A stretch of 64,000 nucleotides of DNA from Bacteroidales bacterium (lineage in GTDB: Bacteria; Bacteroidota; Bacteroidia; Bacteroidales; P3), in contig JAFVBF010000034.1 of the NCBI GenBank assembly GCA_017480145.1, positions 66,817-130,816 on the forward strand, read 5' to 3'. Positions 15,901-58,918 of the stretch are shown piece after piece (position 1 is the stretch's first letter; each line of letters opens with the position of its first letter). The notes under the pieces are model-generated. The model did no database searches. It worked only from the letters and a program-made list of their open reading frames with translations, and was not told the DNA's origin. The position numbers were made by a program, and so were the translations under genes.

Positions 15901-17085
15901 AATCTGGGCGACATCAGCGAGGACATTCTGCGCGACGGACGCAAGTCCTTCGAAAACGGCCTCCCTACCGGTGCCGAGGTATCCGATGTGGACACAACAA
16001 TCTGGGGACGCGTACCCACCACCCAGCCCATCGTTAATGCCTTCGACAACGATGCCTCGGCCCGAAAATACCAAGACGTAGGCTATGATGGACTCGGTAG
16101 CACCCACGACATCTCCGACGAACAAACCTTCTTTGCCGACTATGTACGTCGGATAGCCCTCCTCCACGGTTCAAGTTCCGAAGCCTACAAACTGGCCTCC
16201 CAGGACCCCAGCAGCGATGACTTCCGCTACTTCCGCAGTTCCTTCTACGACCAAAACAACGTCAAAATCAACGACCGCTATAAATACTACAACAACCCCG
16301 AAGGCAACTCGCCCGTGGATGACGACAACACCGAGAGTTACAGCACCGCAGCCTCATCACTGCCCAATGTGGAGGACATCAACAAGGACAATACTCTGAG
16401 CGAGGCTGAGAATTACTACCAATACGTCATTGATTTGCGACCCGAGATGATGCAAATCGGACAAAATCACATTGTGGATATACAAGAGGCTCAGAATGTC
16501 CAATTGCCCAACGGAACAACCACCACCTGCAAGTGGTATCAGTTTCGCATTCCCATCCGCGAACCCGACGAGAAAGTAGGCGACATCAATGGGTATCAGT
16601 CCATCCGATTCATGCGCCTCTTCATGAACAGTTTCGAAAAACCCATCATACTGCGTTTCGCCACCATGGAACTCGTCTATTCCACATGGCGCAAATACAG
16701 CGAGAGCCTCCTACAGCCTGGAGACTATGCCACGGGGACGACCGACAATACCGAGTTTTCCATCTCCACCGTAAATATTGAAGAGAACGGCAACCGTAGC
16801 CCCATACCCTACGTCCTTCCGCCAGGCATCGAACGTGAAGAATGGTACAGTAGCGGGTCCTCCTACACTCAGCTTAACGAGCAAGCCCTCTCTCTCGACA
16901 TCACCAACCTCACCCAAGGCGACTCTCGTGCCATCTACCGTAGCAGCAGCTACGACCTACGTTATTACGGCAAACTAAAAATGTTCGTCCATGCCGAGAA
17001 GAAACTGGCAGCCACCAATCTAAACGACGGAGACCTCACCCTTTTCGTCCGTCTTGGTACAGACTATACGAACAACTACTACTAG
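12937..17085 (+). CDS. sprA: T9SS translocon protein SprA, N-terminal 1381 codons, ending at an internal in-frame TAG
   Basis: Signal peptide followed by very long beta-rich text typical of SprA/Sov. The ORF stops at TAG 17083-17085, and the same frame continues open into the next ORF. Confidence 0.8.
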   Translation: MFHTAHNATRQIVRRLLLAALLMFTGILCHSLHAQSDTSWRPNIGGGYTPPAITTKVEYDSERGEYIKIQQLGDKEISRSYMTFQEYQDWQMDQTLQKYWNQKNASSGDYDGDSEGLLNKIPGFNEISKKIEALLGKPEISINPTGSAELTFQVVNNYRNDPALDATRRSVTTFDFDENIQIALNAKIGDLINFDLNWNTQATFDFENKLKLRYDGKEDDIIQLIEAADVSFPLTTTLIQGSQQLFGFHTKLKFGKLTIDAVVSQKETSTQNMQVKGGSSSQEFEIRADEYEDNRHYFISQYFYNHYNEALQTLPIVASNIKILRLEVWRTNVGAAVTNNRNLLALTDLGERYPSNQHLTGHGKDQPSNNCNDLLNGWIDVNAIRSVNNITSYMQSRGMTSGTDYEKIESARLLNSNEYTYNSQLGFISLTQPLSNDQVLAVAFQYQIIGDTTIYQVGELTTDGINDPNTLVVKLIKSTATNTHGPLWKLMMKNVYFLKSTQLSRDNFRLNVLYENPEGGLGIGFFTDGPKEGVPLIEVFGLDRMDASQNYYYADGVFDWFDSALFKGGIIQASTGRIFFPYVEPFGKDLRQILGDNEFAEKYCFDSLYTLTQSLARQYADKNKFYLEGYLSSAVSGEISLGYSVTQGSVKVTAGGVPLIENVDYTVDYTMGTVRIINESILSSGTPISVSSENNSFSMSTKTLLGTHLNYEVEKNFNIGLTAMNLHEKPLTQKNNFGDEPTDNFIWGFDLSYNHEVPFITKLIDKLPGIETKAPSNLSLTAEFAHFIPGLSNTGSKDGTSTYVDDFEGAESGIDLKGVGYWYLASTPQDYRSQMPLFRETEPNSGLAYGFNRARLAWYRIDDIFYSSSSPSNINADDRSLPYARRITEQEVFPNKDLAAGQPTTIYEMNLAFYPEERGPYNYDVEPGPYSAGVNAGGLLNNPKSRWGGIMRKLDYTDFETQNIETLEFWLMDPFIEDPDHSGGKLYINLGDISEDILRDGRKSFENGLPTGAEVSDVDTTIWGRVPTTQPIVNAFDNDASARKYQDVGYDGLGSTHDISDEQTFFADYVRRIALLHGSSSEAYKLASQDPSSDDFRYFRSSFYDQNNVKINDRYKYYNNPEGNSPVDDDNTESYSTAASSLPNVEDINKDNTLSEAENYYQYVIDLRPEMMQIGQNHIVDIQEAQNVQLPNGTTTTCKWYQFRIPIREPDEKVGDINGYQSIRFMRLFMNSFEKPIILRFATMELVYSTWRKYSESLLQPGDYATGTTDNTEFSISTVNIEENGNRSPIPYVLPPGIEREEWYSSGSSYTQLNEQALSLDITNLTQGDSRAIYRSSSYDLRYYGKLKMFVHAEKKLAATNLNDGDLTLFVRLGTDYTNNYY

Positions 17086-17163
17086 TACGAACTCCCTCTA
17101 CAGCTCACACCATGGTACACCAGTGCCGACTACTCCGACCAAATATGGCCTCGAACCAACAAC

Positions 17164-20130
17164 GTGGAGATTGACCTCGAAAAGCTGGTTACAATCAAGA
17201 CTAACCGCAACCGTGCTATTCGCAACGGGTCCAAAAGTTTCAGTTCCACACTTCTCTATAGCGAGCAGGATGGAGACCGTACATATTCAGTGCTGGGCAG
17301 CCCTAATCTGGGCAAAGTAAAGGTCATCATGATTGGCGTGCGCAACCCGCGAAAGAAAAATCTTGGCGATGCCAACGATATGCTTCCCAAATCAGCTATC
17401 GTCTGGGTCAATGAGCTTCGACTCACAGACTTCAACAACCACGGAGGATGGGCAGCGATGGCCTTAGCCAAGACTAATCTGGCCGACCTCGGCAATATTT
17501 CCTTATACGGCTCCTACACTAGTGCCGGATTCGGCAATTTGGAAGACAAATTAACGGGTCTCGAACTTGTCAACAACCTTAACCTCCAAACATCCCTCGA
17601 TCTCGAATTGAGCAAATTCCTGCCTGATGAGTGGGGGGTACGCATCCCTTTCTACATTGACCATACACGCCAGATAGGCAGTCCAGAATACAACCCCTTT
17701 GACCAAGATGTCAAACTATCTGATGATCTGGATACCTACGAGTCCTCCTCTGCACGAGACAGCATCAAAGACGCTGCCCGTGAGCAGAAAAAAGCCACTA
17801 ACCTCACCCTCACAAACATCCGCAAAGAGCGCGTCGGCGAAGCCGCACTCAAACCTCACTTCTACGACATTGAGAATTTCTCCATCTCCTACGCCTACAG
17901 TGGAGAACGTAACAGCGACGACGAAACCGAATACTTCAAGAAAAACCAGCACCGTGGCGGCCTCACATACAACTTCAGTACTCCTCAGCCCAAACAGTTT
18001 AAGCCCTTCGAGAAAAGCAAATTATTTTCCAGCAAACACTGGCGACTCCTCAAGGAGTTCAACCTCTACTACCAGCCGAAGAACGTCAGCTTCTCCACCG
18101 AACTCTTCCGTGACTATGAGGAAACCCTGCTCCGCAACAAGAGCCAGGCACTCATTATCATCAAGCCCACTTATTACAAACAATTCTCCCTACAGCGGAA
18201 TTATGGACTCCAATACGACCTCTCACGAGCCCTACGCATTCAATACTCAGCCAATGCCAACGCCCGTATTGACGAACCCGTGGGAGCCATCAACTCTGCC
18301 ACGCGCGATTCCATTTGGAGAGCACTCACCCATGGCGGAACCATGCAGAATTTCTCCCAAACCCTGAACCTCAACTGGGACATACCCATCAATAAATTAC
18401 CCTTCCTTGACTTCATCAAGACCCCATTGGTCTATCGCACCACCTACACTTTCCAAGGTGCCTCATTCGCCACACAGTCTCTCGGCAACACCCTCAACAG
18501 CAGCACGACCCTTCAGGCTACCGCATCTGCCAACCTACAAACCCTCTACAACAAGTCCAAACTCTTCAAAAAAGCACAGTCATACAACTTCCAAAACGAG
18601 GTTGACAAAATCCGAAATGTCAACAAGAATCATCAAGCACGCGGACGCAATGGTGCTCGCCGCAATGCAAAACAAGACACAGTCATCCTCACCAAGGCCC
18701 AACGCGACTCCATTGAACATCTCGTCCAACTAGAACGATGGAAAGCCGTCGGATATTTCGGTCTTCAACTCGTCTCCTGTATAAAAAATGTCACAGCACA
18801 ATACAGTACAACATCAGGCAACCGCCTGCCCGGCTTCATGGGTACCGCCACAATCGTAGGCCTCGACCCTAAAAACAGCTGGAACCCGGGGTTGGGATAC
18901 ACCACCGGATTTAACACCGATATCGCCTCCTCACTTGCCAACAAAGGGCTCCTCACCACCGACACCCTCATGAACACTCCACACGAAAACACCCTTAGCC
19001 GAACACTCTCCCTACAAGCCAGCGTCGAGCCCATCCGTGACATGAAAATAGAGTTCTCGTGTACCCAAAACTACAGTACCCGAGAAGAATACTACTATTA
19101 TTACATGTCAGACCTCGGCAAAGTTGACGGTCCTCTCTCTTACATCATGTCTGGAAATTACACAACCACCGTCTGGAGTTTTCGTACCGCCTTCTCCAAT
19201 TCAGACAAACTCTTTAGCCAATTCCTTGACAACCGCACCACAATCTCCTCCCGTCTGGCAGCCGCCAACCCTTCATCCTATACCCGACAGATGGTGCAAG
19301 ACACCCTTTCTGGACACTACTACAACGCCGGCTACAGTGGCAATAGCCAAGATGTCCTGCTTACATCCTTCCTCGCCACTTATTTAGGAAAAGACCCCTC
19401 ATCCTACGGTTTTTCTCCGTTCCTATCCTTTCCTTTGCCCAACTGGTCACTCAACTACACAGGACTAAACAAAATCAAATCACTCAAAAAAATATTCACA
19501 AACATATCTCTTTCACACAAATATAGTTCCACTTACACCATTAGCAATTTCTACACAGATGCAGCCGTGGCCAATCTTCCTAACTACGATTACGGAAGCG
19601 AAACCATCACTACTGCGTCTGGCGACTATATCCCACCCGTCAGCATGGATGCTGTTCAGATATCCGAACAGTTTAACCCGCTGATACGTCTCTCTATGTC
19701 GTTTGTCAACAGCCTACAGCTCAACTTCTCTATCCAGCGAAACCGTATGCTGGGCATGAGTTTTGCAAACAACCAGCTAACAGAAACCACCAGACGTGGT
19801 GTTACCCTGGGAGGCGGATACCGCATCAAGGATGTCGCTTTTGCCGTTAAGGCCAGCGGACGAACCATGAAATTTAAAAGCGACATCGTATTGCAACTCA
19901 ACCTCACCTATAATAGCAACATGACTAACATTCGAAAAATCAACCAGAACGTTAGTCAGATTTCATCAGGAAGTTCCGTTTGGATGATTGAATTGTCGGG
20001 GGAATATGCACTCTCCAGCACCCTCACCGCACGCCTTTTCTTCCAAACGAACATCAATACCCCCTACATTTCCAACTCCTATCCCAACTCCACTACAAAA
20101 GGAGGACTCACCATACGCTTCAGTTTTTAA
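17164..20130 (+). CDS. sprA: SprA, C-terminal 988 codons, in the same frame as 12937..17085. This is not an independent gene.
   Basis: 12937 and 17164 share the same codon phase. Codons 17086-17163 (YELPLQLTPWYTSADYSDQIWPRTNN) contain no stop. The combined length of about 2390 aa matches a full-length SprA. Confidence 0.8.
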   Translation: MEIDLEKLVTIKTNRNRAIRNGSKSFSSTLLYSEQDGDRTYSVLGSPNLGKVKVIMIGVRNPRKKNLGDANDMLPKSAIVWVNELRLTDFNNHGGWAAMALAKTNLADLGNISLYGSYTSAGFGNLEDKLTGLELVNNLNLQTSLDLELSKFLPDEWGVRIPFYIDHTRQIGSPEYNPFDQDVKLSDDLDTYESSSARDSIKDAAREQKKATNLTLTNIRKERVGEAALKPHFYDIENFSISYAYSGERNSDDETEYFKKNQHRGGLTYNFSTPQPKQFKPFEKSKLFSSKHWRLLKEFNLYYQPKNVSFSTELFRDYEETLLRNKSQALIIIKPTYYKQFSLQRNYGLQYDLSRALRIQYSANANARIDEPVGAINSATRDSIWRALTHGGTMQNFSQTLNLNWDIPINKLPFLDFIKTPLVYRTTYTFQGASFATQSLGNTLNSSTTLQATASANLQTLYNKSKLFKKAQSYNFQNEVDKIRNVNKNHQARGRNGARRNAKQDTVILTKAQRDSIEHLVQLERWKAVGYFGLQLVSCIKNVTAQYSTTSGNRLPGFMGTATIVGLDPKNSWNPGLGYTTGFNTDIASSLANKGLLTTDTLMNTPHENTLSRTLSLQASVEPIRDMKIEFSCTQNYSTREEYYYYYMSDLGKVDGPLSYIMSGNYTTTVWSFRTAFSNSDKLFSQFLDNRTTISSRLAAANPSSYTRQMVQDTLSGHYYNAGYSGNSQDVLLTSFLATYLGKDPSSYGFSPFLSFPLPNWSLNYTGLNKIKSLKKIFTNISLSHKYSSTYTISNFYTDAAVANLPNYDYGSETITTASGDYIPPVSMDAVQISEQFNPLIRLSMSFVNSLQLNFSIQRNRMLGMSFANNQLTETTRRGVTLGGGYRIKDVAFAVKASGRTMKFKSDIVLQLNLTYNSNMTNIRKINQNVSQISSGSSVWMIELSGEYALSSTLTARLFFQTNINTPYISNSYPNSTTKGGLTIRFSF

Positions 20131-32126: not shown

Positions 32127-35100
32127 ATGCAACCTATAGCGAAACAGATAATACTACTCCTCGTTCTGATTGTGGGAGCATCCATATCCCTTCAGGCACA
32201 AGGCCGCATCATCGTCCGCTACGATACCATCTGTCCTGGAGAAACAGGCTGCCACACCTATATGGACACTCTCTTTTACGAAGATTGGGAGTCTTCTAAT
32301 TCCAGCTGCTGGCAACTCGACAAAAACGGGAGCAATTATATTGACGGATTCAGCATTTCCAACAAACTACAAGCAGTCCAAATACCAAGTTATCAGTTCC
32401 CAGCCTATGATGGTAACGCACTATTTGAGGCATCAGACAAAATATACAATTTGTACGGATATATCACCGATGATGATATCCCCAGCAGCATTACCGCATA
32501 CTGGAGCAACGCTATGCTCACCTACTTTACAAGCACTGCTACTTCTCCAAGTTTTACAATCTCAGACCCTTCCCAGACAACAGTATCCTTCTTTTTCTAT
32601 GATGAAATATTAGGATACGAAACAATGGCATTCGATGACGAGGGCTACCCCACATCCAATCCGTATGAGGTATTCTGGTACTACGATTTATTGAACGTAA
32701 TCGATCAAGTCGCACTTTACGGCAGTACAAATACAAAAAAAATATGGGGACTATCTGCAGAAGACATTGATAGAGAGCATGAAAATATAAACAACTACGA
32801 CACATGGAAAAAAGCAACCGTTTCCATGTCGTCTCTCTCCGCAGGAGACAACACGCTCAAATTCTATCACATCAATCAAGGAGGTATTGGTTTTGGGGTG
32901 GACAACATCCTCGTCTATGGCCCCCGCTGCATCAAAATCCCCACAGCAGTATCAGCCCTACCTTCAGGCAGCACATACGAAAATTCCGAAACCGTTTACC
33001 GCCATGGATGCCAACCCACGACAATAACCACTCACTGGTATGTCAAGGGCTCGAAAAAAGATACAGTAGCAATCACTACCACGGAGTCTGGCTACCAATG
33101 GAACGGAACAACATACACTACCAGCGGCATTTATAACAAGTCTGGGTTTACAGACAATGACGGATGCGACAGCACTGCCTACCTCAACCTCACAATCTCT
33201 AAAAATGCACGGGTTGTGCTACCTCCCATTACCGTATGTGACGAATACACATGGACCGACGGTACAGGCAAAACCTACACTTCTACAACCACAGACTCTG
33301 TCGTTTGCACTGAATGCACCTCGTCGGGTAGCGATAGCACAACAATCCTAACCATCAACATCCACAAGTCATATCCCGACATGAAGGTATATAAATCCCT
33401 ATGTGAAGATGCCGCCGATATGGACTCCGCATTTGTGGACTATGACACCACCACCCAACGTCTCACCACGATGGCCGGCACTTGCGACAGCATCGTCACC
33501 ACCTACACCACCATACACCCCAGTTACAAATTCTATGACACCTTAGAACTATGCAATCACGAGGGAATGACGGTCCCCTGGCGACACACCGTGCTAACCC
33601 AAGACCTCCACGATGGCGGCGACTACACTCTTGAAGCAGCAACCAGCAATGAATGCGACAGCAATTTCTACTTACACCTAAAACTCACCCACGCCGTAAC
33701 CTCTTCTGTATCTGACACCATCATCGAAAACGACCTGCCCTATATCTACGACGGACAAAGTTATCCCGCCGCCGTGAGCAATATTTCTCACACACTCCAG
33801 TCTGTCAACGGATGCGACAGCATCATTAGCTTCTCGTTAGTCGTCATCCCCAACGTCACAGCAGACATCTACGACACCGTGTGCTACAGCCAATTGCCCC
33901 ACACATGGAACGGCAAGACATTCTACGCATCGTCATTGTCCGCAGGACCACTCGGTGGCGACATTGCTCAGCAAACCACCCTATTCACCACCCGTGGAGC
34001 CGACAGCACTATCACAATGCACCTACACGTCAATGCCATCTACGACATTCACCAATACGAGGAAATCTGCGCCAATAGAACCTACCAGTTCGCCGGACAA
34101 ACATATACCTTCGCCCCCTCCGATGACAAGAATGTGCGATACAATGACACTCTGAAAACCGTACAGGGCGGCTGCGACAGCATGGTGTCGCTCCACCTCC
34201 ATGTATGGCCCACCTATGAGCACGAACAATACGACACCACCACCACAGACCTCCTACCCTATCGATTTGGCCCCTACCAATGCAATGAAATCGGCGACTA
34301 TCATTACACCGAACAAAGCGTCCACAAGTGCGACAGCCTGCTAACCCTCCACCTATGGGTCATCCAGATAACGCACTTCGATACCGCCGTGTGCAGCAAC
34401 CGTACGCCATTCATATGGCACAATCGCTCGTTCAAAGAGTCATCCACAGATACCGTAACCCTCACTGGCATACATGGGGAAGACAGCCTGCTACTGCTAC
34501 ACGCCATCATCCTCGACACCTCCGCCTTCATAGACCAACAAGAACGCTGCGATCGCTACGTATGGCTCAATGGCATCACCTACACCGAATCCACCTCCTC
34601 ACCTCGACTCATGCGCACCAACCGCTATGGTTGCGACAGCGTGGTTCATTTAGACCTCATCATTGACAAATCTACAGCTATTGCCGACCACATCTCCGCA
34701 TGCAATACTTATACATGGATGGACGGCATCACCTATGAAAGCAGCATCTATGGTCCTCAAGTAATGCTGCATACCGTGCATGGCTGCGACAGCCTCGTCA
34801 CTCTCGACCTCTACATAGCCTATTCCACCTACGAGGAAATCCTTGACACCCTCTGTTCTGGGTCTCAATATGACTTCCGCGGACATATGTTCTCCCGCGG
34901 AGGCATCTATGTGGACTCGCTACTCACCGTAGAAAAATGCGACAGCATCACATTGCTAAACCTCATCGAACTCACATCACCACACATTGAGACCGAATTG
35001 GTTAGAGACTGCGAAGCCAACCGCTATTACATCAATGTTATCACTGAAGCCGACTATGTTGAGTGGAATTCCTATCCCAAAAATCTCGCCCTGGACGAAC

Positions 35101-35744
35101 AAAAGCATAGCAAATCCATCATACTCAACCCTCACGTTGATGCCGAATACACCGTTTACGCCGACTATCAATCCTACCCAGTCTGCCCTGCCGCCATCAC
35201 ATTCTCCCTCTCTCCTTTGCAAAATCCCAAGGCAACACTCCACTCTACGCCCGACTTCATCTCCTACGACAACAACATACTGAAAGCCACCGATGTAAGC
35301 GGAGACTATGACACTCGTAACTGGTATATCGACGGCCTGATGCAAGACAGTCATGAAGAGAAATTCTCCTACACCTGCGACATGGCAAATGACTCCGTCG
35401 TCGTCATGCTCGAAGTAGTATCCGGGCTCTGCCGTGACACTGCTTACACAACCCTTCATATCTACAAGCCCACACTTTATATGCCCTCGGCCTTCACTCC
35501 ATTCCTGAGCTCCAACAACACATTCAAACCACAGGGAGTTGGCATCGTAAACTACTCCCTGCAAATCTACAACCGACAGGGGCTTTTGGTCTTTAGCACC
35601 AAGGATTTTGATGAGGCATGGAACGGCAAATACAAAGACACCTACTGTGAGCAAGGCGTTTACGTCTATCTCATTCGCTATACCGACATTACTGCTCCCG
35701 AATCCTACAAAGAAGTCTCGGGCAACATCATGCTCCTGCGATAG
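32127..35744 (+). CDS. Giant repetitive surface protein with a T9SS type-B (gliding-motility-associated, CHU_C-like) C-terminal sorting domain. Paralogue 1.
   Basis: Signal peptide MQPIAKQIILLLVLIVGASISLQAQ, then a ~280-aa N-terminal globular region. About 12 modules of 50-60 aa follow, each ending in (G)CDS plus an alternating hydrophobic strand. The C-terminus is ..AFTPFLSSNNTFKPQGVGIVNYSLQIYNRQGLLVFSTKDFDEAWNGKYKDTYCEQGVYVYLIRY...GNIMLLR. Confidence 0.85.
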   Translation: MQPIAKQIILLLVLIVGASISLQAQGRIIVRYDTICPGETGCHTYMDTLFYEDWESSNSSCWQLDKNGSNYIDGFSISNKLQAVQIPSYQFPAYDGNALFEASDKIYNLYGYITDDDIPSSITAYWSNAMLTYFTSTATSPSFTISDPSQTTVSFFFYDEILGYETMAFDDEGYPTSNPYEVFWYYDLLNVIDQVALYGSTNTKKIWGLSAEDIDREHENINNYDTWKKATVSMSSLSAGDNTLKFYHINQGGIGFGVDNILVYGPRCIKIPTAVSALPSGSTYENSETVYRHGCQPTTITTHWYVKGSKKDTVAITTTESGYQWNGTTYTTSGIYNKSGFTDNDGCDSTAYLNLTISKNARVVLPPITVCDEYTWTDGTGKTYTSTTTDSVVCTECTSSGSDSTTILTINIHKSYPDMKVYKSLCEDAADMDSAFVDYDTTTQRLTTMAGTCDSIVTTYTTIHPSYKFYDTLELCNHEGMTVPWRHTVLTQDLHDGGDYTLEAATSNECDSNFYLHLKLTHAVTSSVSDTIIENDLPYIYDGQSYPAAVSNISHTLQSVNGCDSIISFSLVVIPNVTADIYDTVCYSQLPHTWNGKTFYASSLSAGPLGGDIAQQTTLFTTRGADSTITMHLHVNAIYDIHQYEEICANRTYQFAGQTYTFAPSDDKNVRYNDTLKTVQGGCDSMVSLHLHVWPTYEHEQYDTTTTDLLPYRFGPYQCNEIGDYHYTEQSVHKCDSLLTLHLWVIQITHFDTAVCSNRTPFIWHNRSFKESSTDTVTLTGIHGEDSLLLLHAIILDTSAFIDQQERCDRYVWLNGITYTESTSSPRLMRTNRYGCDSVVHLDLIIDKSTAIADHISACNTYTWMDGITYESSIYGPQVMLHTVHGCDSLVTLDLYIAYSTYEEILDTLCSGSQYDFRGHMFSRGGIYVDSLLTVEKCDSITLLNLIELTSPHIETELVRDCEANRYYINVITEADYVEWNSYPKNLALDEQKHSKSIILNPHVDAEYTVYADYQSYPVCPAAITFSLSPLQNPKATLHSTPDFISYDNNILKATDVSGDYDTRNWYIDGLMQDSHEEKFSYTCDMANDSVVVMLEVVSGLCRDTAYTTLHIYKPTLYMPSAFTPFLSSNNTFKPQGVGIVNYSLQIYNRQGLLVFSTKDFDEAWNGKYKDTYCEQGVYVYLIRYTDITAPESYKEVSGNIMLLR

Positions 35745-35779
35745 AGACAGGAATAGCCCTACCCTCCTAAATTACACAG

Positions 35780-38700
35780 ATGTCTATGTTCAAGAAATAT
35801 ATAACAGGTTCTATACGATTTCTGACGATGGCGTTCCTGTTCGCCATCCCCTCCCTGTGTGCGGCTCAGGACAACGACTTTATCCTTGACAGCACCTATA
35901 CCAGTAACGGCATCACACACTACATCATCCATGGCTGCAATCGCGTCAGAATCAACGGAAGCAACTACTCGCAAACTGGCGAAGTAACCATCGGAACCGA
36001 CGTTTACAATTACACCATCTACAAAGGTTCCCGCAACACCGACCGCCCCGAGATTCAGTGCGACCGCTATAGTTGGGATGCCACTGGCGAAACCTACACG
36101 ACCGACACCAATGTAACCACCACGCTACGAGACATCTATGGGTGTGACTCCATCGTCACACTGCAACTCACATTCAAATATTCTTCTGAATACTACATCA
36201 ACGATGCCAGTTGCGACACCTACCAATGGCACGACTCTATCTATACCGAATCCCAAGACCCAGCCATCTTCGATACCACCAACGCAGTCGGATGCGACTC
36301 TATTGTCAAACTCTACCTGACAATCTATAAATCAGACACAACAAGAATCCTTATCGACACTTGTGAGTCCTACGTATGGAATGGCGTCACCTACACCGAA
36401 TCAACAGATATACAGCACTCGTTACTCACCATCAACGAATGCGACTCCATCGTGATTTTCTCTCTCAACATCCACCACAACGACACCATTGACGTGACGG
36501 AAGTGATTCGGGAGAACCTGCTACCCTACACCTATCATGGTGCCACCTTCACAGAAATGAGGGATACCGCTGGACTCATTTTCAACATTAAAAGTATCTC
36601 CAACTGCGACAGCACCATCAACTATTCCATACATTTTCTTGCCAACGTACGGACAGAGATTGACACCATCGTCTGCCAAAATCTATTAGAATCGGGATTC
36701 CGATGGAATGCAAAAACATTCTTCTCCACAGGCATCGACTCCATCAATCTGGGGCGCACAGCAACCGGATCCGACAGTTATGGGCAATATGCCGACTCTA
36801 TTGTCGTAATGACCGTGTCGGCAATGCCAAGTTACCATTTCGATGAAAATAAGGAAATCTGCGAAGGTGAATCCTATACCTTCCGCAACAATACCTATAC
36901 CACTCAAGGCATTTATCCCACAGAATACCGCACCACCCAAAACTGCGACAGCAATTACGTCCTATACCTGACGGTGCACCCCACATACAATATTCCCATT
37001 GCGCAATCCATTTGTAGCAATGCCCCTGTCTCATTCTGTAGTTACAATTACAGCGAAGCTGGCACCTACACCTGTACCATGACTTCCATTCATGGCTGCG
37101 ACAGCACAATCACGCTCTCCCTCTCCGTGGCTGATACCACGATAGGCGAAGTATACGACACCATTCTCGAAAACGATCTGCCTTGGACCTATCGAGACAT
37201 CACATTCGACACTTTCAGTCAAGACATCCAGCACCGGTTCCTCCTCGACAGCGGCAATGTCAATGGTTGCGACAGCATCATCAGATACCATCTAATTATC
37301 TATCAAAATGTATACGACACCATTGACAGTACCATTTGTTCCAGCAACTTTCCCATATTATGGAATACGCTGACATTTGCTGCCGACGAGTCACACACAC
37401 TCACACTGACCAACCATTTAGGTGCTGACAGCATACTGACCATGCGCACCCATGCGATGCCCAACCCCTCTCAAACCTACAACGACACCATTGTTGAAAA
37501 TCAACTTCCCATCACTTTCTATGGCACCACATTCTACGATGCTGTCTCCGAACAATGCTTCTCTCGCCCTGCCATAGGGCCTTGCGACAGCATCATTATA
37601 TACAATCTACACGTACTCGAAAACACACTCACTCGCATCGACACCACGGTCTGCGAAGGCACACTCCCTATTACTTGGCGAGGACACGATTTTGCCGAGG
37701 TTGGCTGGACGTATGACACCCTCAACGGAACGGATGGCACCGACAGCATCCTCGCTTATTTTCTCACCACATCGCCTCACTACAACGACACATTTTCCAA
37801 CAGCATTTGCAGCAATCAAACAATATCCTTCGGCAATAAGACTTACGATACCGCTGGCACTTTCACCTATCAAACCCTCTCTCAATTCGGTTGCGATAGC
37901 ACCGCCACCATGATATTGACTGTCAATCCCGTCAGCAACACCACAGAATACGACACCATCATTGAAAACCAACTTTATGAACGCCACGGTACACTCAACA
38001 ACTATTTCTACTGCTACTACCACAACGGGCAATGTTTCAATGACAGCGTGTCGCACTCCGAAGTAACCATCTTAGGAGGGAATCAATACCAGTGTGACAG
38101 CATCATTGACTATAGCCTCTATGTTTACTGGAATCATGACACCACCCTATATGATACGCTATGCGGCAACGAACTCCCCTACATATGGATGGGAAAAACA
38201 TTCTCTGCCAGCAATACCTATGGAACACTCCAACAGGACATTGATACCCTTACCGTACACGGAGCCGACAGCATTATCCACCTGTCACTCACCGTCCATA
38301 ACAACTATCTCATAGAGGATAATGAGGTGGTATGCGAACCTCTATCCACAACACCCTACCAATGGTATGACACACTGATTCAGGAGAGCAAATCGCTCGA
38401 CACATTCTACCTACCACGAAAATCCGTGTACGGTTGCGACAGTCTCCACACCCTTTACCTAACCACAGCCACCCACACCTTTGACACCATCTTTGATACC
38501 ATTGTTGAAAACCAGACCAAAGGCGTCTTCTGCTACCAATTCAACGGGCATCCTTTCTGCGACACAAGCACCATTACTGACTCAACGATTATCATTCCCA
38601 ATCATGCTGGATGCGACAGCAATATCTCTTATAATTTATTTGTACACAAAAATACCTACACTTATGACACAACCGTCATCTGTGCTGACCAACTACCTCT

Positions 38701-40534
38701 AACCTGGAATTACACCCGATTTGTCGTTGAAAGTTTGCCCGAAGAGACCACTCAGGGCAAAAGCCGCTCTGGCATACTGCAAGATTCCATCGCACTCCGT
38801 GCGCAAACGGGAGCCGACAGCATTATTCACATGACAGTCTATGTCTTTCCAACCTACCACATCGACCGCTACGACACCATTTGCGACGACTCTTCTATCA
38901 CCTTTTTAGGGCGTACCTATTCCGAAACCACCGTCGAATCTCGAAATATGGCCTCCGTTGACTTATGTGACAGTATCTGGACAATTCACCTACAGTCATA
39001 CAAAGCCTATGACCAAGAATTCTTCGACACCATCTACGAGGATGAATGGTCCTATTTTGGAGGTTATGCCTACAACCATACCGGAGACTACACCTCCAGT
39101 CTTACCACCATACACTACTGTGACAGCATACTCACCCTGCACCTCATCGTCTACCATAAAACCCTTATTGACAGCACTATTTGTCGCAACATGCTCCCCA
39201 TCACCTGGAACGGGATGCAGTTCTCCTCTGCAGGAACAAAAGAACAAACTTTAACAGACATCTACGGATTAGACAGCCTTGTCATCATGACCCTCCACGT
39301 GCAAGATACCTCTTTCGCACGTGAAACCGTGGAACGATGTAATGCCTACACATGGCGAAATGGTAAACGATACACCGAAAGCACCAACTCCGAGTCTATA
39401 CGTCTGACCAATGATATAGGATGCGACAGCGTGATATATCTTTCCCTGAGCATTTTTTATGATCAAAATGTAGTCCAAAAACAACAGAGTTGCGACAACT
39501 ACACATGGATTAACGGACGAACCTACGACACCTCCATTTATGGGCCCACATATTTATTGAAATCCTCACATGGCTGTGACAGTCTTGTAACGCTCGATTT
39601 ACACATTGACTACTCTTTCTATGAAGAATGGTATGACTCAATATGTGAAGGACAGACTTACTATTTCAGAGGCCATGCCCTCACACAAACCAGCACTACC
39701 TACGACTCACTGACCACCCACAAAGGATGCGACAGTATCACTGCCATGTTCCTCACCGTCCTGCCAATCCCCTCCATCAACCTTGACTACACCACCGATT
39801 GCGAAAATGGTACACATACCATTTCTGTCAATACCAGTGTGGCTTACGTCTATTGGTCCACCTTCCCAGCTGACCCGACACTCTCCTCCCAGGCCCACAA
39901 TCAGACCATCACTGTTGCGCCAAAACAAAATACCACATACATTCTCTATGCCGACTACAACGAATACCCCACTTGTCCGGCATCGGACTCGCTCTACCTC
40001 CGAAAGATATATCAGCCCGTGGCAAAACTAATGCTCACACCAGACTATCTGACTTATGATAATATGGAACTGACTGCCATCGATTTGAGTGAGAATGACC
40101 CAGATCGCCAATGGTATGTCAACGATATCTTTGTTGACAACGACAGCAGCATTCTAAAATACAAGGCCGAAGCCGATGACGACACCATACATATCATGCT
40201 GGCTATTGCCAACGGATATTGTACCGACACGGCTTACGCAGCCATCAAACTCTTAAAGCCGAATATTTTTGCCCCTAACGTATTTACACCTGGATTACAA
40301 AACAACAATATTTTCTACGTAATTGGCAATGACATCTATGATTACGAGATTGCCATTTACGACCGCCGCGGCCAAATTCTATTCCATTCCACTGACATCA
40401 GCGAGGGCTGGGACGGAACAAGCAACGGAGAGTTATGCCCTCAGGGCAACTACGTGTATGTCATACGCTACCAAGCTGCCGATGTCCAGAATTCGGTACA
40501 GACATATACTGGGTCTGTCATTCTACTCCGATAG
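35780..40534 (+). CDS. Giant repetitive surface protein with a T9SS type-B C-terminal sorting domain. Paralogue 2.
   Basis: Signal peptide followed by about 23 (G)CDS-terminated modules. The C-terminus is ..VFTPGLQNNNIFYVIGNDIYDYEIAIYDRRGQILFHSTDISEGWDGTSNGELCPQGNYVYVIRYQ...GSVILLR. The last ~450 aa are colinear with paralogue 1. Confidence 0.85.
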   Translation: MSMFKKYITGSIRFLTMAFLFAIPSLCAAQDNDFILDSTYTSNGITHYIIHGCNRVRINGSNYSQTGEVTIGTDVYNYTIYKGSRNTDRPEIQCDRYSWDATGETYTTDTNVTTTLRDIYGCDSIVTLQLTFKYSSEYYINDASCDTYQWHDSIYTESQDPAIFDTTNAVGCDSIVKLYLTIYKSDTTRILIDTCESYVWNGVTYTESTDIQHSLLTINECDSIVIFSLNIHHNDTIDVTEVIRENLLPYTYHGATFTEMRDTAGLIFNIKSISNCDSTINYSIHFLANVRTEIDTIVCQNLLESGFRWNAKTFFSTGIDSINLGRTATGSDSYGQYADSIVVMTVSAMPSYHFDENKEICEGESYTFRNNTYTTQGIYPTEYRTTQNCDSNYVLYLTVHPTYNIPIAQSICSNAPVSFCSYNYSEAGTYTCTMTSIHGCDSTITLSLSVADTTIGEVYDTILENDLPWTYRDITFDTFSQDIQHRFLLDSGNVNGCDSIIRYHLIIYQNVYDTIDSTICSSNFPILWNTLTFAADESHTLTLTNHLGADSILTMRTHAMPNPSQTYNDTIVENQLPITFYGTTFYDAVSEQCFSRPAIGPCDSIIIYNLHVLENTLTRIDTTVCEGTLPITWRGHDFAEVGWTYDTLNGTDGTDSILAYFLTTSPHYNDTFSNSICSNQTISFGNKTYDTAGTFTYQTLSQFGCDSTATMILTVNPVSNTTEYDTIIENQLYERHGTLNNYFYCYYHNGQCFNDSVSHSEVTILGGNQYQCDSIIDYSLYVYWNHDTTLYDTLCGNELPYIWMGKTFSASNTYGTLQQDIDTLTVHGADSIIHLSLTVHNNYLIEDNEVVCEPLSTTPYQWYDTLIQESKSLDTFYLPRKSVYGCDSLHTLYLTTATHTFDTIFDTIVENQTKGVFCYQFNGHPFCDTSTITDSTIIIPNHAGCDSNISYNLFVHKNTYTYDTTVICADQLPLTWNYTRFVVESLPEETTQGKSRSGILQDSIALRAQTGADSIIHMTVYVFPTYHIDRYDTICDDSSITFLGRTYSETTVESRNMASVDLCDSIWTIHLQSYKAYDQEFFDTIYEDEWSYFGGYAYNHTGDYTSSLTTIHYCDSILTLHLIVYHKTLIDSTICRNMLPITWNGMQFSSAGTKEQTLTDIYGLDSLVIMTLHVQDTSFARETVERCNAYTWRNGKRYTESTNSESIRLTNDIGCDSVIYLSLSIFYDQNVVQKQQSCDNYTWINGRTYDTSIYGPTYLLKSSHGCDSLVTLDLHIDYSFYEEWYDSICEGQTYYFRGHALTQTSTTYDSLTTHKGCDSITAMFLTVLPIPSINLDYTTDCENGTHTISVNTSVAYVYWSTFPADPTLSSQAHNQTITVAPKQNTTYILYADYNEYPTCPASDSLYLRKIYQPVAKLMLTPDYLTYDNMELTAIDLSENDPDRQWYVNDIFVDNDSSILKYKAEADDDTIHIMLAIANGYCTDTAYAAIKLLKPNIFAPNVFTPGLQNNNIFYVIGNDIYDYEIAIYDRRGQILFHSTDISEGWDGTSNGELCPQGNYVYVIRYQAADVQNSVQTYTGSVILLR

Positions 40535-40611: not shown

Positions 40612-41364
40612 ATGAAAAGAAAATCTTTAGCAATTGCCCTATTATTCCTATCAGCGGCATCCCTAATGGCCCAGACCATTACTGAAACAACCCTGAAAAT
40701 AAACAAGAATATATATACTGCATATTCTATAAATCTTTCACAAGACAATTCCGATGCAACCAGTTTGGTCAAAAAATGGCTCAAACAGTCAAACCTGTCC
40801 ACCTCTAATAAGCAAGGCTGCATCGCCACCTTAGGGCAGGTACATCCCGACATCTCATCCCTGCCCGTGGACATGTATGCCAAAATAGAAAAAAATGACA
40901 AAGGAGCAGGCAGTATTGTTACCATTACCGCCATTGAGGATGGTGAAAAAGTAACCGATGCCGAAGGCATTAAAAGGGCTTTAAACAGATTCTCAAAATA
41001 TGTTGCTGCCAATGAAATTTCAAAGAGTGAGAAAGAGCTGAAAAAAGCTCAAAAAACACTCTCCTCAGCTCAAAGTGATGTTACCAGCATAGAGAAAACC
41101 ATCACCTCAAAGCAAGACAAAATAGCCGACAAACAGAAAGACATAGAAAAATATAAAGAAAAAATAAACTCCAAACAGAAAGAAATCGAAGACCTAAAAG
41201 AGAAAATCAAAAATACCACCAACAACATCAGCGAGATAGAAGCCGACATCAAGAAGCAAAATAGCAAGAAAGAAGAAGCTCTGCAAAAAGCAACCGCAGC
41301 TGAAAAAAACGTTCAGGCTGCCGAAGCCGAACTAAAGAAATACCAAACCATTCTGGCACAATAG
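40612..41364 (+). CDS. Secreted protein with a small N-terminal domain and a Lys/Glu-rich coiled-coil C-terminal half
   Basis: The start is trimmed to MKRKSLAIALLFLSAASLMAQ (signal peptide), because the ORF from 40435 overlaps the upstream gene. The C-terminal ~120 aa are heptad-like (KELKKAQKTLSSAQSDVTSIEKTITSKQDKIADKQKDIEKYKEKINSKQKEIEDLKEKIK...). Confidence 0.7.
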   Translation: MKRKSLAIALLFLSAASLMAQTITETTLKINKNIYTAYSINLSQDNSDATSLVKKWLKQSNLSTSNKQGCIATLGQVHPDISSLPVDMYAKIEKNDKGAGSIVTITAIEDGEKVTDAEGIKRALNRFSKYVAANEISKSEKELKKAQKTLSSAQSDVTSIEKTITSKQDKIADKQKDIEKYKEKINSKQKEIEDLKEKIKNTTNNISEIEADIKKQNSKKEEALQKATAAEKNVQAAEAELKKYQTILAQ

Positions 41365-45463: not shown

Positions 45464-46888
45464 ATGAAACGTTTATTGTTCTTGTCGTTAGCCGTTCTTT
45501 TGACATGTCTGCCTGCCTATGCCCAGAAAAGAGAGCCTGGCAAAGTGAAAACGCTGGTGATAGACCCTGGCCACGGAGGCATCAAGCCGGGAGCCATTAG
45601 CAAAGACTTACAGGAAAAAGAACTCACCTTGGCTGTGGCATTACGGTTCGGAAGCCTCGTAGAAAAACACATGCCCGATGTCAAAGTCATCTACACACGC
45701 AAGACCGACGTAGACATCACCCTTGCCGAACGAGCCAATATCGCCAATCGCAACAAAGCCGACCTATTCATCTCCATACATGCCAACTCCCACCCAAAGA
45801 GCGAACCCAGCGGTGTCGAAACCTTTGTCATGGGTCTATCCCAGAGCAAAGCCAATCTTGAGGTAGCGAAAAAAGAAAACGCAGACATACTGCTCGAATC
45901 AGACTATGCCACCAACAACGCCTACCAAGGATTCGACCCAAATTCGCCCGAAAGCTACGTCATGTTTGCCATGTACCAAAGTGCCTATCTATCCAAAAGC
46001 TTAGACTTTGCAAACTACATCCAATCCCAGTACAAAAGCAGCCTACGCTCCATTAATCGTGGGGTCAAGCAGGCCGAACTTTTCGTCATCTACAAAACCG
46101 CCATGCCAGCCGTCCTGACGGAGATTGGCTTCGTGAGCAATCCAGAGGAACGCGCCTTCCTGCTGAGCGACGCTGGACGCGAAAAAATCGCCGTATGTCT
46201 CTACAACGCATTTGCCTCCTACAAAGCCCATGAAGAAGGCACCCAGCCCAAACTTATATCCTCATTTAATGCACCCGTAGCGGACACTGACATCACCGCC
46301 ACCAAAACATCTGACAAAGTCAGCGAGTCAGAAAAAGCCAAACAGAAAGCCGAAGAGGAAGCCAGAGCATTGGCTGCACAGAAAGAAGCAGAAGAACATG
46401 CCATGGCCGAAGCCGCACAAAAAAAAGAAGCCGAGGAACAAGCAGCCCTAAAGGCCAAAGAAGAGGAAGCCGCCAAAGAGGCTGAAGCCAAAGCCCTTGC
46501 CGCCAAAGAAGCCGCTGAAGCCGAAGCAAAAGAACGAGCAAAAGAACAAGAGCGGCAAGCCGATGAGGCCAACAGACAAGCCCAGGCCGCCGCACAAATG
46601 GCCGCCGCCAATCCACATAATGTATCCTACAGGATCCAATTCCTTCGCAGCGACCAGATGCTCAAAGCTGGTGACAAACAATTGAAAGGCCTGGACAATT
46701 TCACCTATTACAAGCAAGATGGCATATACTGCTATATGTGGGGAAGCACCACATCTCTCGAAGCCGCAAAGGTGCTCCAGTCCGACGTACGCAACAAAGG
46801 CTTCCGCGATGCCTTCGTAGTGGCTTTTGCCAACGGCGAACGCGTAAGCCTGCAAAAAGCCAAACAACTGCTGTTAGAGGGAGAATAA
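45464..46888 (+). CDS. N-acetylmuramoyl-L-alanine amidase (Amidase_3) with an Ala/Glu/Lys-rich linker and a C-terminal SPOR domain
   Basis: The start is trimmed to MKRLLFLSLAVLL (signal peptide). VIDPGHGG...SIHANS...E amidase_3 motifs. Roughly 100-aa AEK low-complexity linker. SPOR-like YRIQFLRSDQ...GFRDAFVVAF. Confidence 0.85.
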   Translation: MKRLLFLSLAVLLTCLPAYAQKREPGKVKTLVIDPGHGGIKPGAISKDLQEKELTLAVALRFGSLVEKHMPDVKVIYTRKTDVDITLAERANIANRNKADLFISIHANSHPKSEPSGVETFVMGLSQSKANLEVAKKENADILLESDYATNNAYQGFDPNSPESYVMFAMYQSAYLSKSLDFANYIQSQYKSSLRSINRGVKQAELFVIYKTAMPAVLTEIGFVSNPEERAFLLSDAGREKIAVCLYNAFASYKAHEEGTQPKLISSFNAPVADTDITATKTSDKVSESEKAKQKAEEEARALAAQKEAEEHAMAEAAQKKEAEEQAALKAKEEEAAKEAEAKALAAKEAAEAEAKERAKEQERQADEANRQAQAAAQMAAANPHNVSYRIQFLRSDQMLKAGDKQLKGLDNFTYYKQDGIYCYMWGSTTSLEAAKVLQSDVRNKGFRDAFVVAFANGERVSLQKAKQLLLEGE

Positions 46889-46893
46889 CCACC

Positions 46894-47586
46894 ATGATAG
46901 AAATCAGCCATATCTCAAAACTTTACGGCAAGCAGCGAGCCTTGAACGATGTATCCTTCTCCATCAAGGAAGGCGAGATTGTTGGGCTGCTGGGGCCCAA
47001 CGGGGCTGGCAAATCAACCCTAATGAAAATCATCACCTGCTACATCCCTCCCACCGAAGGCGATGCGACAGTATGTGGCCACGACATCTACGACGACCCC
47101 ATGGCTGTTCGGCAATGCATAGGATATCTGCCCGAACACAATCCGCTATATCTCGAAATGTATGTTCGGGAATTTCTGCGTTTCTCAGCAGGCATCTATG
47201 GCCTGAAAGACGCACGCGACCGAGCAGAAGAGATAATCAAACACGTCGGACTAACGCCAGAGGCTAACAAGAAAATCGGTCAATTGTCCAAAGGCTATCG
47301 CCAGCGTGTCGGGCTGGCACATGCCTTGATACATAACCCGAAAGTACTCATTCTGGATGAACCGACCACAGGCCTTGACCCCAATCAGCTTGAGGAAATC
47401 CGCCACCTGATTCGAACCGTTGGGCAACACAAAGTCGTGCTGCTTTCCACACATATCATGCAGGAGGTAGAAGCCATGTGCAGCCGCGCCATCATCATCA
47501 ATCAGGGCTGCATAGTCTCCGATGACTCCATGGAAAACATCTCCTCGCAGGAACTCACCTCTAAATTCCATAAACTGACCCAATAA
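46894..47586 (+). CDS. ABC transporter ATP-binding protein with no adjacent permease gene
   Basis: The start is trimmed to [12 protein letters not shown]. Walker [10 protein letters not shown], signature LSKGYRQRV, Walker B LILDEPT, H-loop STHIM. 230 aa. Confidence 0.85.
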
Positions 47587-57835: not shown

Positions 57836-58918
57836 TTAGAACTTCAACGTAGCACCAATAGAATGGGTTCCTTTGAGCGGAGATGCACTGCGGAACGAAT
57901 AATCGATTTCAAGTGCCGTATTGGCCTTCTGTCCTTTCTCTCTTTTGGAAAGAGGGACCTCAACAGAAGCACCTGCACATATACCAGTATTGGCTGTCGT
58001 GCGGTCGCTGGAGCTGAAAATGTCCGTCTGATAGACATAGCCACAACGAACTTCGGCCATATTGAAAATGCCATACTCAACACCGAGAGCGAAATTATCC
58101 TTCAGAAAAGCATTGGAAGTAAAACTTCCGGCAACAGTGACACGCTGCTCATACTTCTCAAAAAGAAAATCATAAGAGACGCCTATATTCAGGCAAGTAG
58201 GCAACTCCATATCAGCGGAACGGGTTTCAACCGTAAAATTGTTCCCAGCATCGTTCACCATCGTCAGAGAATGACCTGTGCCTGAGAATGAGAAAGCAGT
58301 ACCAATATTCTTCAAACTAATACCAAATTTCAACTCATCATCAGCACCAGTAACATACTGAATACCTGCATCAATAGAGAAACCCGAGGCAGACACATTA
58401 TCCGTAGATTCAGAAATCACACGGAAAGCCACGCCTCCATGAATACTACGAGTAAAGGAGTGTGCATAACCGACAGCAATATTCATGAATGAGGGAGAGA
58501 AAGTACCCGCTGTACCCTCAGGGTTTTCAACCGTCGTAATAGCTATATCGCCAAAACCCATCGTCATTACCTGAACACCTAAAACACCCGACTCAAAGAT
58601 ACGAATACCCAAACCAAAAGCATTGATGGAAGCTCCCGACGTAGCACCGCTTTTACCTCCCAAATAAATGGTATTGGTATAGGTCAACTCCATATGGCGA
58701 GTAAAGGCCAGACCAGAAATATTCGAATAAAACGCATCTAAACCACGGACATTAGCGATGGAGACACTACCCCAGCCCGAACTACGTGCCCAAGGATTGA
58801 TAAGAAGTTCTGTTGCACCAGCAGTACCGCGACGGTTGTCATTACCAGCCCATACGGACTGGAATGACAAGACCGACACAAAGGCGACAACAGTCATTAT
58901 TTTAAATATATTTTTCAT
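57836..58918 (-). CDS. PorV/PorQ-like (FadL-type) outer-membrane beta-barrel protein
   Basis: Signal peptide. N-terminal RRGTAGATELLINPWARSSGWGSVSIANVRGLDAFYSNISGLAF resembles the PorV-family signature. Beta-strand periodicity throughout, and a C-terminal Phe (..GATLKF). Confidence 0.6.
   Translation of the reverse strand: MKNIFKIMTVVAFVSVLSFQSVWAGNDNRRGTAGATELLINPWARSSGWGSVSIANVRGLDAFYSNISGLAFTRHMELTYTNTIYLGGKSGATSGASINAFGLGIRIFESGVLGVQVMTMGFGDIAITTVENPEGTAGTFSPSFMNIAVGYAHSFTRSIHGGVAFRVISESTDNVSASGFSIDAGIQYVTGADDELKFGISLKNIGTAFSFSGTGHSLTMVNDAGNNFTVETRSADMELPTCLNIGVSYDFLFEKYEQRVTVAGSFTSNAFLKDNFALGVEYGIFNMAEVRCGYVYQTDIFSSSDRTTANTGICAGASVEVPLSKREKGQKANTALEIDYSFRSASPLKGTHSIGATLKF

Follow-up and report, generated by a model that had tools for sequence, protein, structure and literature searches.

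The 64,000-nucleotide stretch of Bacteroidales DNA analysed here (contig JAFVBF010000034.1 of assembly GCA_017480145.1), referred to below as the window, carries two adjacent genes, A and B, whose products are ordinary in kind, being giant repetitive surface proteins of a type IX secretion system (T9SS), but are built from a module that belongs to a large undescribed family. On reading the sequence, each N-terminus fits a Sec signal peptide, in that it shows a basic n-region, a hydrophobic core and a site resembling A-x-A, and both proteins end in a type-B T9SS C-terminal domain (CTD), so that the earlier reading of this DNA from its letters alone (the sequence-only reading), which had taken them for a pair of type-B cargo proteins, is borne out. 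The Pfam model CHU_C (PF13585) scored 44.3 bits in A and 47.1 bits in B against a cut-off of 27, and the NCBIfam model TIGR04131 scored 41.6 bits in B, above its cut-off of 35, and 29.3 bits in A, below it. The pair has been called as genes of 1205 and 1582 residues in three public assemblies, and B is identical to an NCBI protein (P0001) from a Bacteroidales bacterium metagenome-assembled genome (MAG) that is named 'gliding motility-associated C-terminal domain-containing protein'. The repeated unit is an all-beta module of about 51 residues ending in (G)C-D-S followed by a strand. The parts of both proteins and the other features discussed are listed in Table 1.

Table 1. Coordinates of the features discussed, counted from the first letter of the window (ORF, open reading frame; aa, amino acid residues)
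Feature	Position	Strand	Remarks
Gene A	32127..35744	+	ORF open 32094/32127-35744, ATG at 32127; 1205-aa T9SS type-B cargo protein
A signal peptide	32127..32198	+	aa 1-24, MQPIAKQIILLLVLIVGASISLQA then QG; judged from translation
A N-terminal domain	32199..32897	+	aa 25-257, ~230 aa
A degenerate module 0	32898..33035	+	aa 258-303; holds Cys268; from cysteine bookkeeping
A module array	33036..34973	+	aa 304-949; 12 modules; type order 1 2 3 3 1 2 3 1 2 3 3 3
A pre-CTD region	34974..35480	+	aa 950-1118; expanded module-like element C962...C1020, plus Cys1102
A type-B T9SS CTD and stop codon	35481..35744	+	PF13585 at aa 1129-1187; TIGR04131 at aa 1119-1205
Gene B	35780..40534	+	open ORF; 1584-aa T9SS type-B cargo protein
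B signal peptide	35780..35863	+	~aa 1-28, ...AFLFAIPSLCA then AQ; judged from translation
B N-terminal segment	35864..36025	+	short, with degenerate module 0; Cys53 would pair with Cys122
B module array	36026..39763	+	aa 83-1328; 23 modules; type order 3 3 3 1 2 3 3 1 2 1 2 3 1 2 3 1 2 3 1 2 3 3 3
B pre-CTD region	39764..40270	+	aa 1329-1497; expanded module-like element C1341...C1399-PAS-DS, plus Cys1481
B type-B T9SS CTD and stop codon	40271..40534	+	PF13585 and TIGR04131
sprA/sov, T9SS outer-membrane translocon	12937..20130	+	two ORFs; in-frame TAG at 17083-17085 ('...TNNYY*YELPL...')
PorV/PorQ-family outer-membrane protein gene	57836..58918	-	NF033709, 119.9 bits, cut-off 90
Secreted coiled-coil protein	40621..41364	+	~247 aa; just downstream of B
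ABC ATPase	46738..47586	+	best match GldA
1638-aa ORF	58952..63868	-	no Pfam or NCBIfam match
Sizeable ORF	10925..12289	+	adjoins ruvA and sprA
Sizeable ORF	8786..10786	-	adjoins ruvA and sprA

The modules were segmented with a regular expression on the x-D-S-strand motif combined with manual assignment, and mostly measure 49-62 residues. A hidden Markov model (HMM) built from these segments recovered exactly 12 domains in A and 23 in B, at 439 and 881 bits, in line with the approximate counts given earlier, and matched no other ORF in a six-frame translation of the window. The signature found in tandem in both proteins comprises C12, W19-x-G21, G39-C40-D41-S42 and L46-x-L48. Over 2,907 modules, C12 is conserved in 89 %, G39 and C40 in 90 % each, D41 in 97 % and S42 in 98 %, and position 43 is V, I, T, L, A or M in 99 %. 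The Asp-Ser pair is thus more conserved than either cysteine, and it is kept at 98-99 % even in modules without Cys40. At the DNA level the 9-mer TGCGACAGC, which the sequence-only reading had noticed in more than a dozen copies, occurs 16 times, always on the plus strand within A and B and at spacings that are multiples of ~153-171 nt; 0.43 +/- 0.61 copies are expected, and none of 100 shuffles reached 16. No tandem repeats were detected in the array at the DNA level and the modules of A and B are ~25 % identical among themselves; the array is therefore old and diverged and not the product of a recent expansion.

Outside the arrays the two proteins differ at one end and resemble each other at the other. 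B is almost entirely stalk, whereas A carries a domain of ~230 residues that is unique to it and would be located at the distal tip if anchoring is C-terminal. No homologue of this domain was found in a search of 5.8 billion proteins, among 261 family members, among PDB sequences or in Pfam at E <= 10, and A-type orthologues in related genomes have ~10 additional modules where A has its N-terminal region of ~230-280 residues. At the C-terminal end, the last ~480 residues of A and B align without gaps at ~40 % identity, and the colinearity goes on upstream at 20-30 % identity to a total of ~880 residues. The colinearity of the last ~450 residues claimed earlier therefore stands; however, the block contains about four modules and not two to three, and no sequence method confirmed the immunoglobulin (Ig)-like region that had been placed before the CTD (sub-region scans at E <= 10). 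The terminal 256 residues, comprising the pre-CTD region and the CTD, are common to 69 of the 261 family proteins in the case of A and to 57 in that of B.

The presence or absence of the two cysteines separates the modules into types. Type 1 lacks Cys12 and has Cys40 (state xC), type 2 has Cys12 and lacks Cys40 (Cx), and type 3 has both (CC). The three types described in the sequence-only reading proved to be family-wide subtypes with residue signatures of their own, namely V/L/I12, E13, N14, P16 and H/Y51 for type 1 and A40, P16, W19 and F24 for type 2. In A and B a type 1 module is followed by a type 2 module in nine out of nine cases (P ~1e-5 for B alone), and orthologues sharing 33-44 % identity keep the type order. 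When the 8,327 modules of the 261 family proteins were classified, the states CC, xC, Cx and xx were counted 6517, 726, 686 and 6 times, respectively; amongst the junctions, xC→Cx was seen 486 times, xC→CC 13 times and CC→Cx 6 times. What recurs is therefore a dyad in which type 2 succeeds type 1, with either no type-3 spacer or a single one behind it. Gaps of zero type-3 modules between dyads (171 cases) and of one (166 cases) occur family-wide, so that two- and three-module super-repeats are both common. The three-module super-repeat noted earlier is accordingly one of two common arrangements and not the rule. A strict period of three in the window was rejected, as it loses significance when dyads are treated as units (P = 0.09 for B and 0.44 for A), and module identity at lag 3 and lag 6 is only slightly raised in A and B.

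Mean-field direct coupling analysis (DCA) was applied to 6,647 distinct adjacent module pairs (effective number ~5000), and 4851 position pairs were ranked. Cys12 of one module and Cys40 of the next, C12(n)-C40(n+1), took rank 1 with a score of 9.76, the next pair scoring 3.5. The cysteines of the same module ranked 4655th with a score of -0.41, which argues against the earlier proposal of an intramodule disulfide between the leading cysteine and that of the CDS motif. A disulfide between Cys40(n) and Cys12(n+1) was also rejected; its coupling ranked only 178th (score 0.62) and it would leave two orphan cysteines per triad. The next inter-module couplings were N51(n)-N38(n+1) and D13(n)-S2(n+1). 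Within a single module, the couplings between strands b1 and b5 follow a constant offset of 39-41, as in parallel strands, those between b4 and b5 a constant sum of 76-78, as in an antiparallel hairpin, and the mini-hairpin packs on L46. A hairpin between b5(n) and b1(n+1), giving a continuous meander, had been the first reading of the strand string of the structure model described below; it was discarded since DCA shows no antiparallel coupling there. The couplings put Cys12 at the top of one module and Cys40 at the bottom of its successor, a head-to-tail stacking in which the bond between them is geometrically natural.

Cysteine bookkeeping in B gives 19 such pairs, including C53→C122 towards the N-terminus and C1289→C1399 and C1341→C1481 towards the C-terminus; beyond these, mature B has three local cysteine pairs and only two orphan cysteines. 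In A, C268 lies exactly 79 residues before C347 (module A01), which is the spacing of C12(n)-C40(n+1), and the expanded element C962...C1020 together with Cys1102 would be compatible with a continuation towards the CTD. From the covariation and this bookkeeping we infer a ladder of inter-module disulfides. A junction between types 1 and 2 would then correspond to one staple lost on both sides, which would account for the near absence of xx modules and of single losses.

The repeat region of B matched more than 2,200 proteins among 8,000 scored candidates; they belong to Bacteroidota, have type-A or type-B CTDs, and none bears a functional name. When 1.84 billion cluster representatives were searched with a 51-position profile of the module, 28,457 proteins were detected at E <= 1e-3, of which 7,667 reached E <= 1e-30. 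Homologues contain up to 88 copies of the module and some reach ~7,000 residues; some carry other N-terminal domains (MAM, PKD) and many carry none. The sequence-only reading could not assign the module to a named repeat family, and the search of Pfam and NCBIfam likewise gave no model: no match was found for the modules, even with sub-regions or three canonical modules at E <= 10, and on the whole proteins only the CTDs were recognised. The SprB repeat (PF13573) had no match in A or B at E <= 1, nor had the PKD, cadherin, bacterial Ig-like and HYR models at E <= 1 on whole proteins or E <= 10 on three modules. Eleven homologues searched against Pfam yielded CTDs, occasional unrelated domains and spurious summed partial matches only. 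Cluster look-ups for the family returned 'hypothetical protein' at best, and the searchable literature gave no description of the module, either by its consensus strings or as T9SS repeat adhesins with disulfides.

Precomputed Pfam labels on the arrays of several homologues (P0008, P0017, P0050, P0051, P0068, P0133, P0230 and others) are artefacts of the repeats. The labels ATE_N, DUF1508, GemA, DUF6319, DUF357, Vps52_CC and others were rejected as sums of sub-threshold partial matches with zero significant stretches, and DUF7619 in homologue P0010 is located outside the modules.

Models of two parts of B were built by AlphaFold2 with family alignments. Both are confidently predicted as all-beta, with three long strands and a mini-hairpin per module: residues 350-716 (seven modules) reached a predicted local distance difference test score (pLDDT) of 86.7, and residues 1176-1328 (three canonical modules) a pLDDT of 95.3 and a predicted template modelling (TM) score of 0.67. 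In Foldseek searches against the PDB the sole significant match of both models was the neck of grappling-hook protein A (GhpA) from Aureispira sp. CCB-QB1 (PDB 9FLP), with E 5.4e-10 and TM 0.22 for seven modules and E 4.4e-5 and TM 0.36 for three; nothing else in the PDB matched the three-module model at E < 1e-3. PDB sequences gave no match to the module profile (E <= 10) or to the whole protein (E <= 1), and against viral structures nothing exceeded TM 0.36. GhpA is the closest analogue of A and B; membership in the GhpA type of grappling hook is not established, in that the matches lie below a TM of 0.5 and sequence homology was not found.

The sequon for O-glycosylation in Bacteroidota, D-(S/T)-(A/I/L/V/M/T), is matched by the conserved D41-S42-[V/I/T/L]43 and by additional sites of the form D-T-[I/V/L], and such motifs in non-cytoplasmic Bacteroidota proteins are reported to be nearly fully occupied (PMC8550257, PMC12871550). 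A contains 28 sequons where 7.2 are expected and B 56 where 10.4 are expected, the other proteins of the window having 0-10. The sequon is found at module position 42 in 31 of the 35 modules of A and B and at positions 9-10 in 16 of them, and at position 33 in 21 % of modules family-wide. Owing to this excess and the reported occupancy, heavy glycosylation overall is likely, and it is probably in the periplasm that the rod receives its many O-glycans.

Genes of the secretion machinery are located in the same window. The two halves of sprA scored 1597.9 and 755 bits against TIGR04189, covering model positions 6-1324 and 1350-2318, and the stop codon that separates them could reflect an error in the MAG consensus, variation between strains or a pseudogene. 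Adjoining ruvA and sprA are two sizeable ORFs with little or no family assignment; one reaches the Pfam cut-off exactly as a right-handed beta-helix (25.9 bits, cut-off 25.9) and the other has no match. The 1638-aa ORF has a C-terminus that by eye resembles a T9SS sorting domain and is directly followed by the PorV/PorQ-family gene, and the two may constitute a dedicated pair of cargo and shuttle. The ABC ATPase scored 367.5 bits against GldA (TIGR03522), just under the cut-off of 402.6, and hints at gliding-type machinery in this Bacteroidales genome. The coiled-coil protein encoded downstream of B has a signal peptide and weak SMC- and Cbp1-like matches, and in a relative (L006) a similar coiled-coil gene, with a weak Tropomyosin match, is found ~3 kb downstream of the orthologous pair.

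When ORFs of the window with 180 aa or more were scanned against Pfam and/or NCBIfam, no PorP/SprF gene (PF11751/TIGR03519) was detected among those scanned, in agreement with the earlier observation that none adjoins A and B. According to the sequence-only reading, type-B cargo genes usually have such a gene beside them. Type-B cargo is anchored on PorP-like proteins, but Porphyromonas gingivalis has a single PorP that binds its one type-B cargo, PG1035 (PMC9143113), and a cargo-specific porP-like gene is therefore not required; the lack of an adjacent porP here is not anomalous for Bacteroidales. Relatives keep the tandem arrangement of an A-type and a B-type gene downstream of a gene with an AIRS domain (PF00586), and no porP is found beside the orthologous pairs of the closest ones (L004 and L006). 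In a distant Bacteroidota genome of 8.1 Mb (L005, 1-21545), three tandem module genes encode proteins of 3189, 2031 and 2094 aa, CHU_C being recorded on the last only; a PorP_SprF gene follows, with an OmpA-domain protein two genes on, and this layout resembles ghpA-ghpB-ghpC.

We favour, with some confidence, the explanation that A and B are paralogous surface fibres, exported by Sec and secreted by the T9SS, in which a rod of stapled and glycosylated modules is anchored on a PorP-type protein and acts as an adhesive or spacer fibril. Each module would consist of strand b1, a mini-hairpin bearing W-x-G-x-x-Y, and strands b4 and b5, with b4 and b5 forming an antiparallel hairpin and b1 running parallel to b5. 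The modules would stack head to tail, an Asn-Pro kink connecting b5 of one with b1 of its successor, so that Cys12, Asp13 and Asn51 at the top of module n come to lie against Asn38, Gly39 and Cys40 in the b4-b5 loop of module n+1. Disulfides between Cys12(n) and Cys40(n+1), the cysteine of GCDS, may then constitute an interlocking ladder by which neighbouring modules are stapled together. The types would be states of this ladder, the junction between types 1 and 2 having one staple removed on both sides and type 3 keeping both cysteines; with stapled ends and an unstapled junction every two to three modules in the middle of the array, the pattern may set the flexibility of the fibre. The rod would be O-glycosylated in the periplasm before the type-B CTD takes the protein through SprA, and would be held at the surface, N-terminus outward, by a PorP/SprF-type barrel whose gene lies elsewhere in the genome. 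Assuming strands of ~11 residues, we estimate ~3-3.5 nm per module, or ~40 nm for A and 75-80 nm for B. By analogy with known systems the role is likely that of an adhesive or spacer fibril.

Several points weigh against this explanation. The proposed ladder stands on covariation and cysteine bookkeeping, and dyads could partly be inherited as duplicated units, which would inflate the covariation. The likeness to GhpA is weak, as the TM values given above indicate, and is not accompanied by sequence similarity, and only the analogy with GhpA and SprB underlies the proposed function. The sprA gene bears an in-frame TAG in this assembly, and the scanned ORFs of the window lack a PorP/SprF gene. 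Regarding glycosylation, position 42 is Ser in 98 % of modules with essentially no Thr, although the sequon accepts Thr (PMC12871550), and according to DCA Ser42 pairs across the hairpin with the core residue Leu34. These two observations suggest that Ser42 may be structural and poorly accessible to the oligosaccharyltransferase, and the modification of Ser42 itself is uncertain. It is quite conceivable, if somewhat short of probable, that Asp41-Ser42 is structural and not glycosylated, any glycans being carried by other sequons; the pair could cap the b4-b5 loop or contribute to a putative junctional Ca2+ site with Asp13, Asn51, Asn36 and Asn38. The cluster of Asp and Asn at the inferred junction, and the persistence of Asp-Ser in modules without Cys40, are consistent with such a role, whereas the joint conservation of all three sequon positions (position 43 being in the allowed set in 99 %), the near-full occupancy reported for such motifs and the glycan-like densities on all repeats of GhpA speak for glycosylation.

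Other alternatives concern the disulfides, the state of assembly, the role of the modules and the integrity of the system. If the disulfide were intramodule, with the orphan Cys40 of type 1 and Cys12 of type 2 forming a swapped bond in each dyad, the cysteine count would also stay even and type-3 modules would offer both partners. Yet the two cysteines of one module are uncoupled and, according to DCA, lie at opposite ends of it (Cys12 closes b1, and Cys40 opens b5, which runs parallel to b1), and the xx state expected from simple loss is seen in just 6 of the 8,327 modules against the 486 xC→Cx junctions, which makes this arrangement very unlikely. A multi-chain tube or bundle comparable to heptameric GhpA, in place of single-chain fibrils, is suggested by the top fold match, by the tandem A-type and B-type genes kept in relatives and by a polar, uncovered face of the three-stranded sheet; with TM values of only 0.22-0.36, modules of 51 aa against ~70 aa in GhpA and no ghpB/ghpC-like (PorP/PorE) genes adjoining A and B, we consider it quite unlikely. 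It is also unlikely, though less so, that the modules are themselves lectin-like or resemble carbohydrate-binding modules (CBMs) and bind polysaccharide or host glycans multivalently, so that the array would not be an inert stalk. The conserved aromatics Y17, W19, Y24 and Y30, the near absence of a separate head domain in B and the many homologues without any other N-terminal domain, beside some with MAM or PKD, would fit ligand-binding modules; the aromatics, however, couple with the core residues L46 and A9, as in a hydrophobic core and not an exposed site, and no CBM or lectin family proved similar to the modules in the searches. Finally, the TAG that splits sprA in frame might mean that sprA is a pseudogene and that A and B are relics that are not exported. 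Both cargo ORFs are long and intact, they share their module pattern with orthologues, one G→T difference is, in a MAG, equally likely to be an error or a minority variant, and an exact look-up of the truncated SprA product in other assemblies gave none; relics of this kind are hence highly improbable.

Giant repeat proteins with sorting domains of the T9SS rank with the largest genes of Bacteroidota, gut and rumen Bacteroidales included, and with those that are least understood. The GCDS module is found in at least 28,000 protein clusters and has neither a Pfam or NCBIfam model nor a solved structure, and naming it would annotate much sequence that is now 'hypothetical'. The proposal of an intramodule disulfide is here replaced by that of a ladder between modules, in which the types are defined by conserved gaps; the covariation yields a concrete and cheaply testable rule, namely a ladder with defined unstapled junctions, and the sequon at the staple predicts dense O-glycosylation. 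Ladder and sequon together provide a framework for the stiffness and decoration of T9SS fibres that complements the single solved example, GhpA. More tentatively, and with considerable doubt, GCDS arrays may represent a phylum-wide unnamed class of T9SS fibres in which every module is stapled, the sequon sits at the staple and the junctions between types 1 and 2 are programmed hinges tuning the mechanics.

Amongst known systems, GhpA, a substrate of the T9SS, has a sorting domain at its C-terminus and a stem of Ig-like repeats, in which disulfides join neighbouring repeats and glycan-like densities are seen on Ser/Thr in every repeat (bioRxiv 10.1101/2024.01.29.577165). Like A and B, it is secreted by the T9SS and its body is a long array of small beta repeats; however, these are longer than the GCDS module and described as Ig-like, the example disulfide spans 152 residues compared with 79 in the proposed ladder of A and B, and the protein is a heptamer with a hook-shaped head. 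The ghpA gene is followed by PorP- and PorE-like genes, whereas the locus of A and B is without such neighbours. SprB of Flavobacterium johnsoniae is similarly a giant repetitive surface protein that ends in a type-B CTD; the T9SS secretes it, and the PorP-like SprF holds it (PMC9143113). Its gene is adjoined by sprF, unlike A and B, and it is a gliding adhesin, whereas nothing at A and B shows a gliding function; the SprB repeat, absent from A and B, is a separate element that occurs beside the GCDS module in some homologues. PG1035 of P. gingivalis is, like A and B, a type-B CTD protein of Bacteroidales, and its gene and porP are located at separate loci; it is not known to contain the GCDS module. 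Lastly, stalks made of Rib, bacterial Ig-like (as in the Marinomonas ice-binding adhesin) or cadherin domains resemble A and B in that small beta domains in series project a tip. Stalks of these kinds gave weak Foldseek matches (E 0.02-0.1), with no significant match in sequence or fold, and they are stiffened by Ca2+, isopeptide bonds or linker packing, whereas A and B would be stiffened by a ladder of disulfides between domains.

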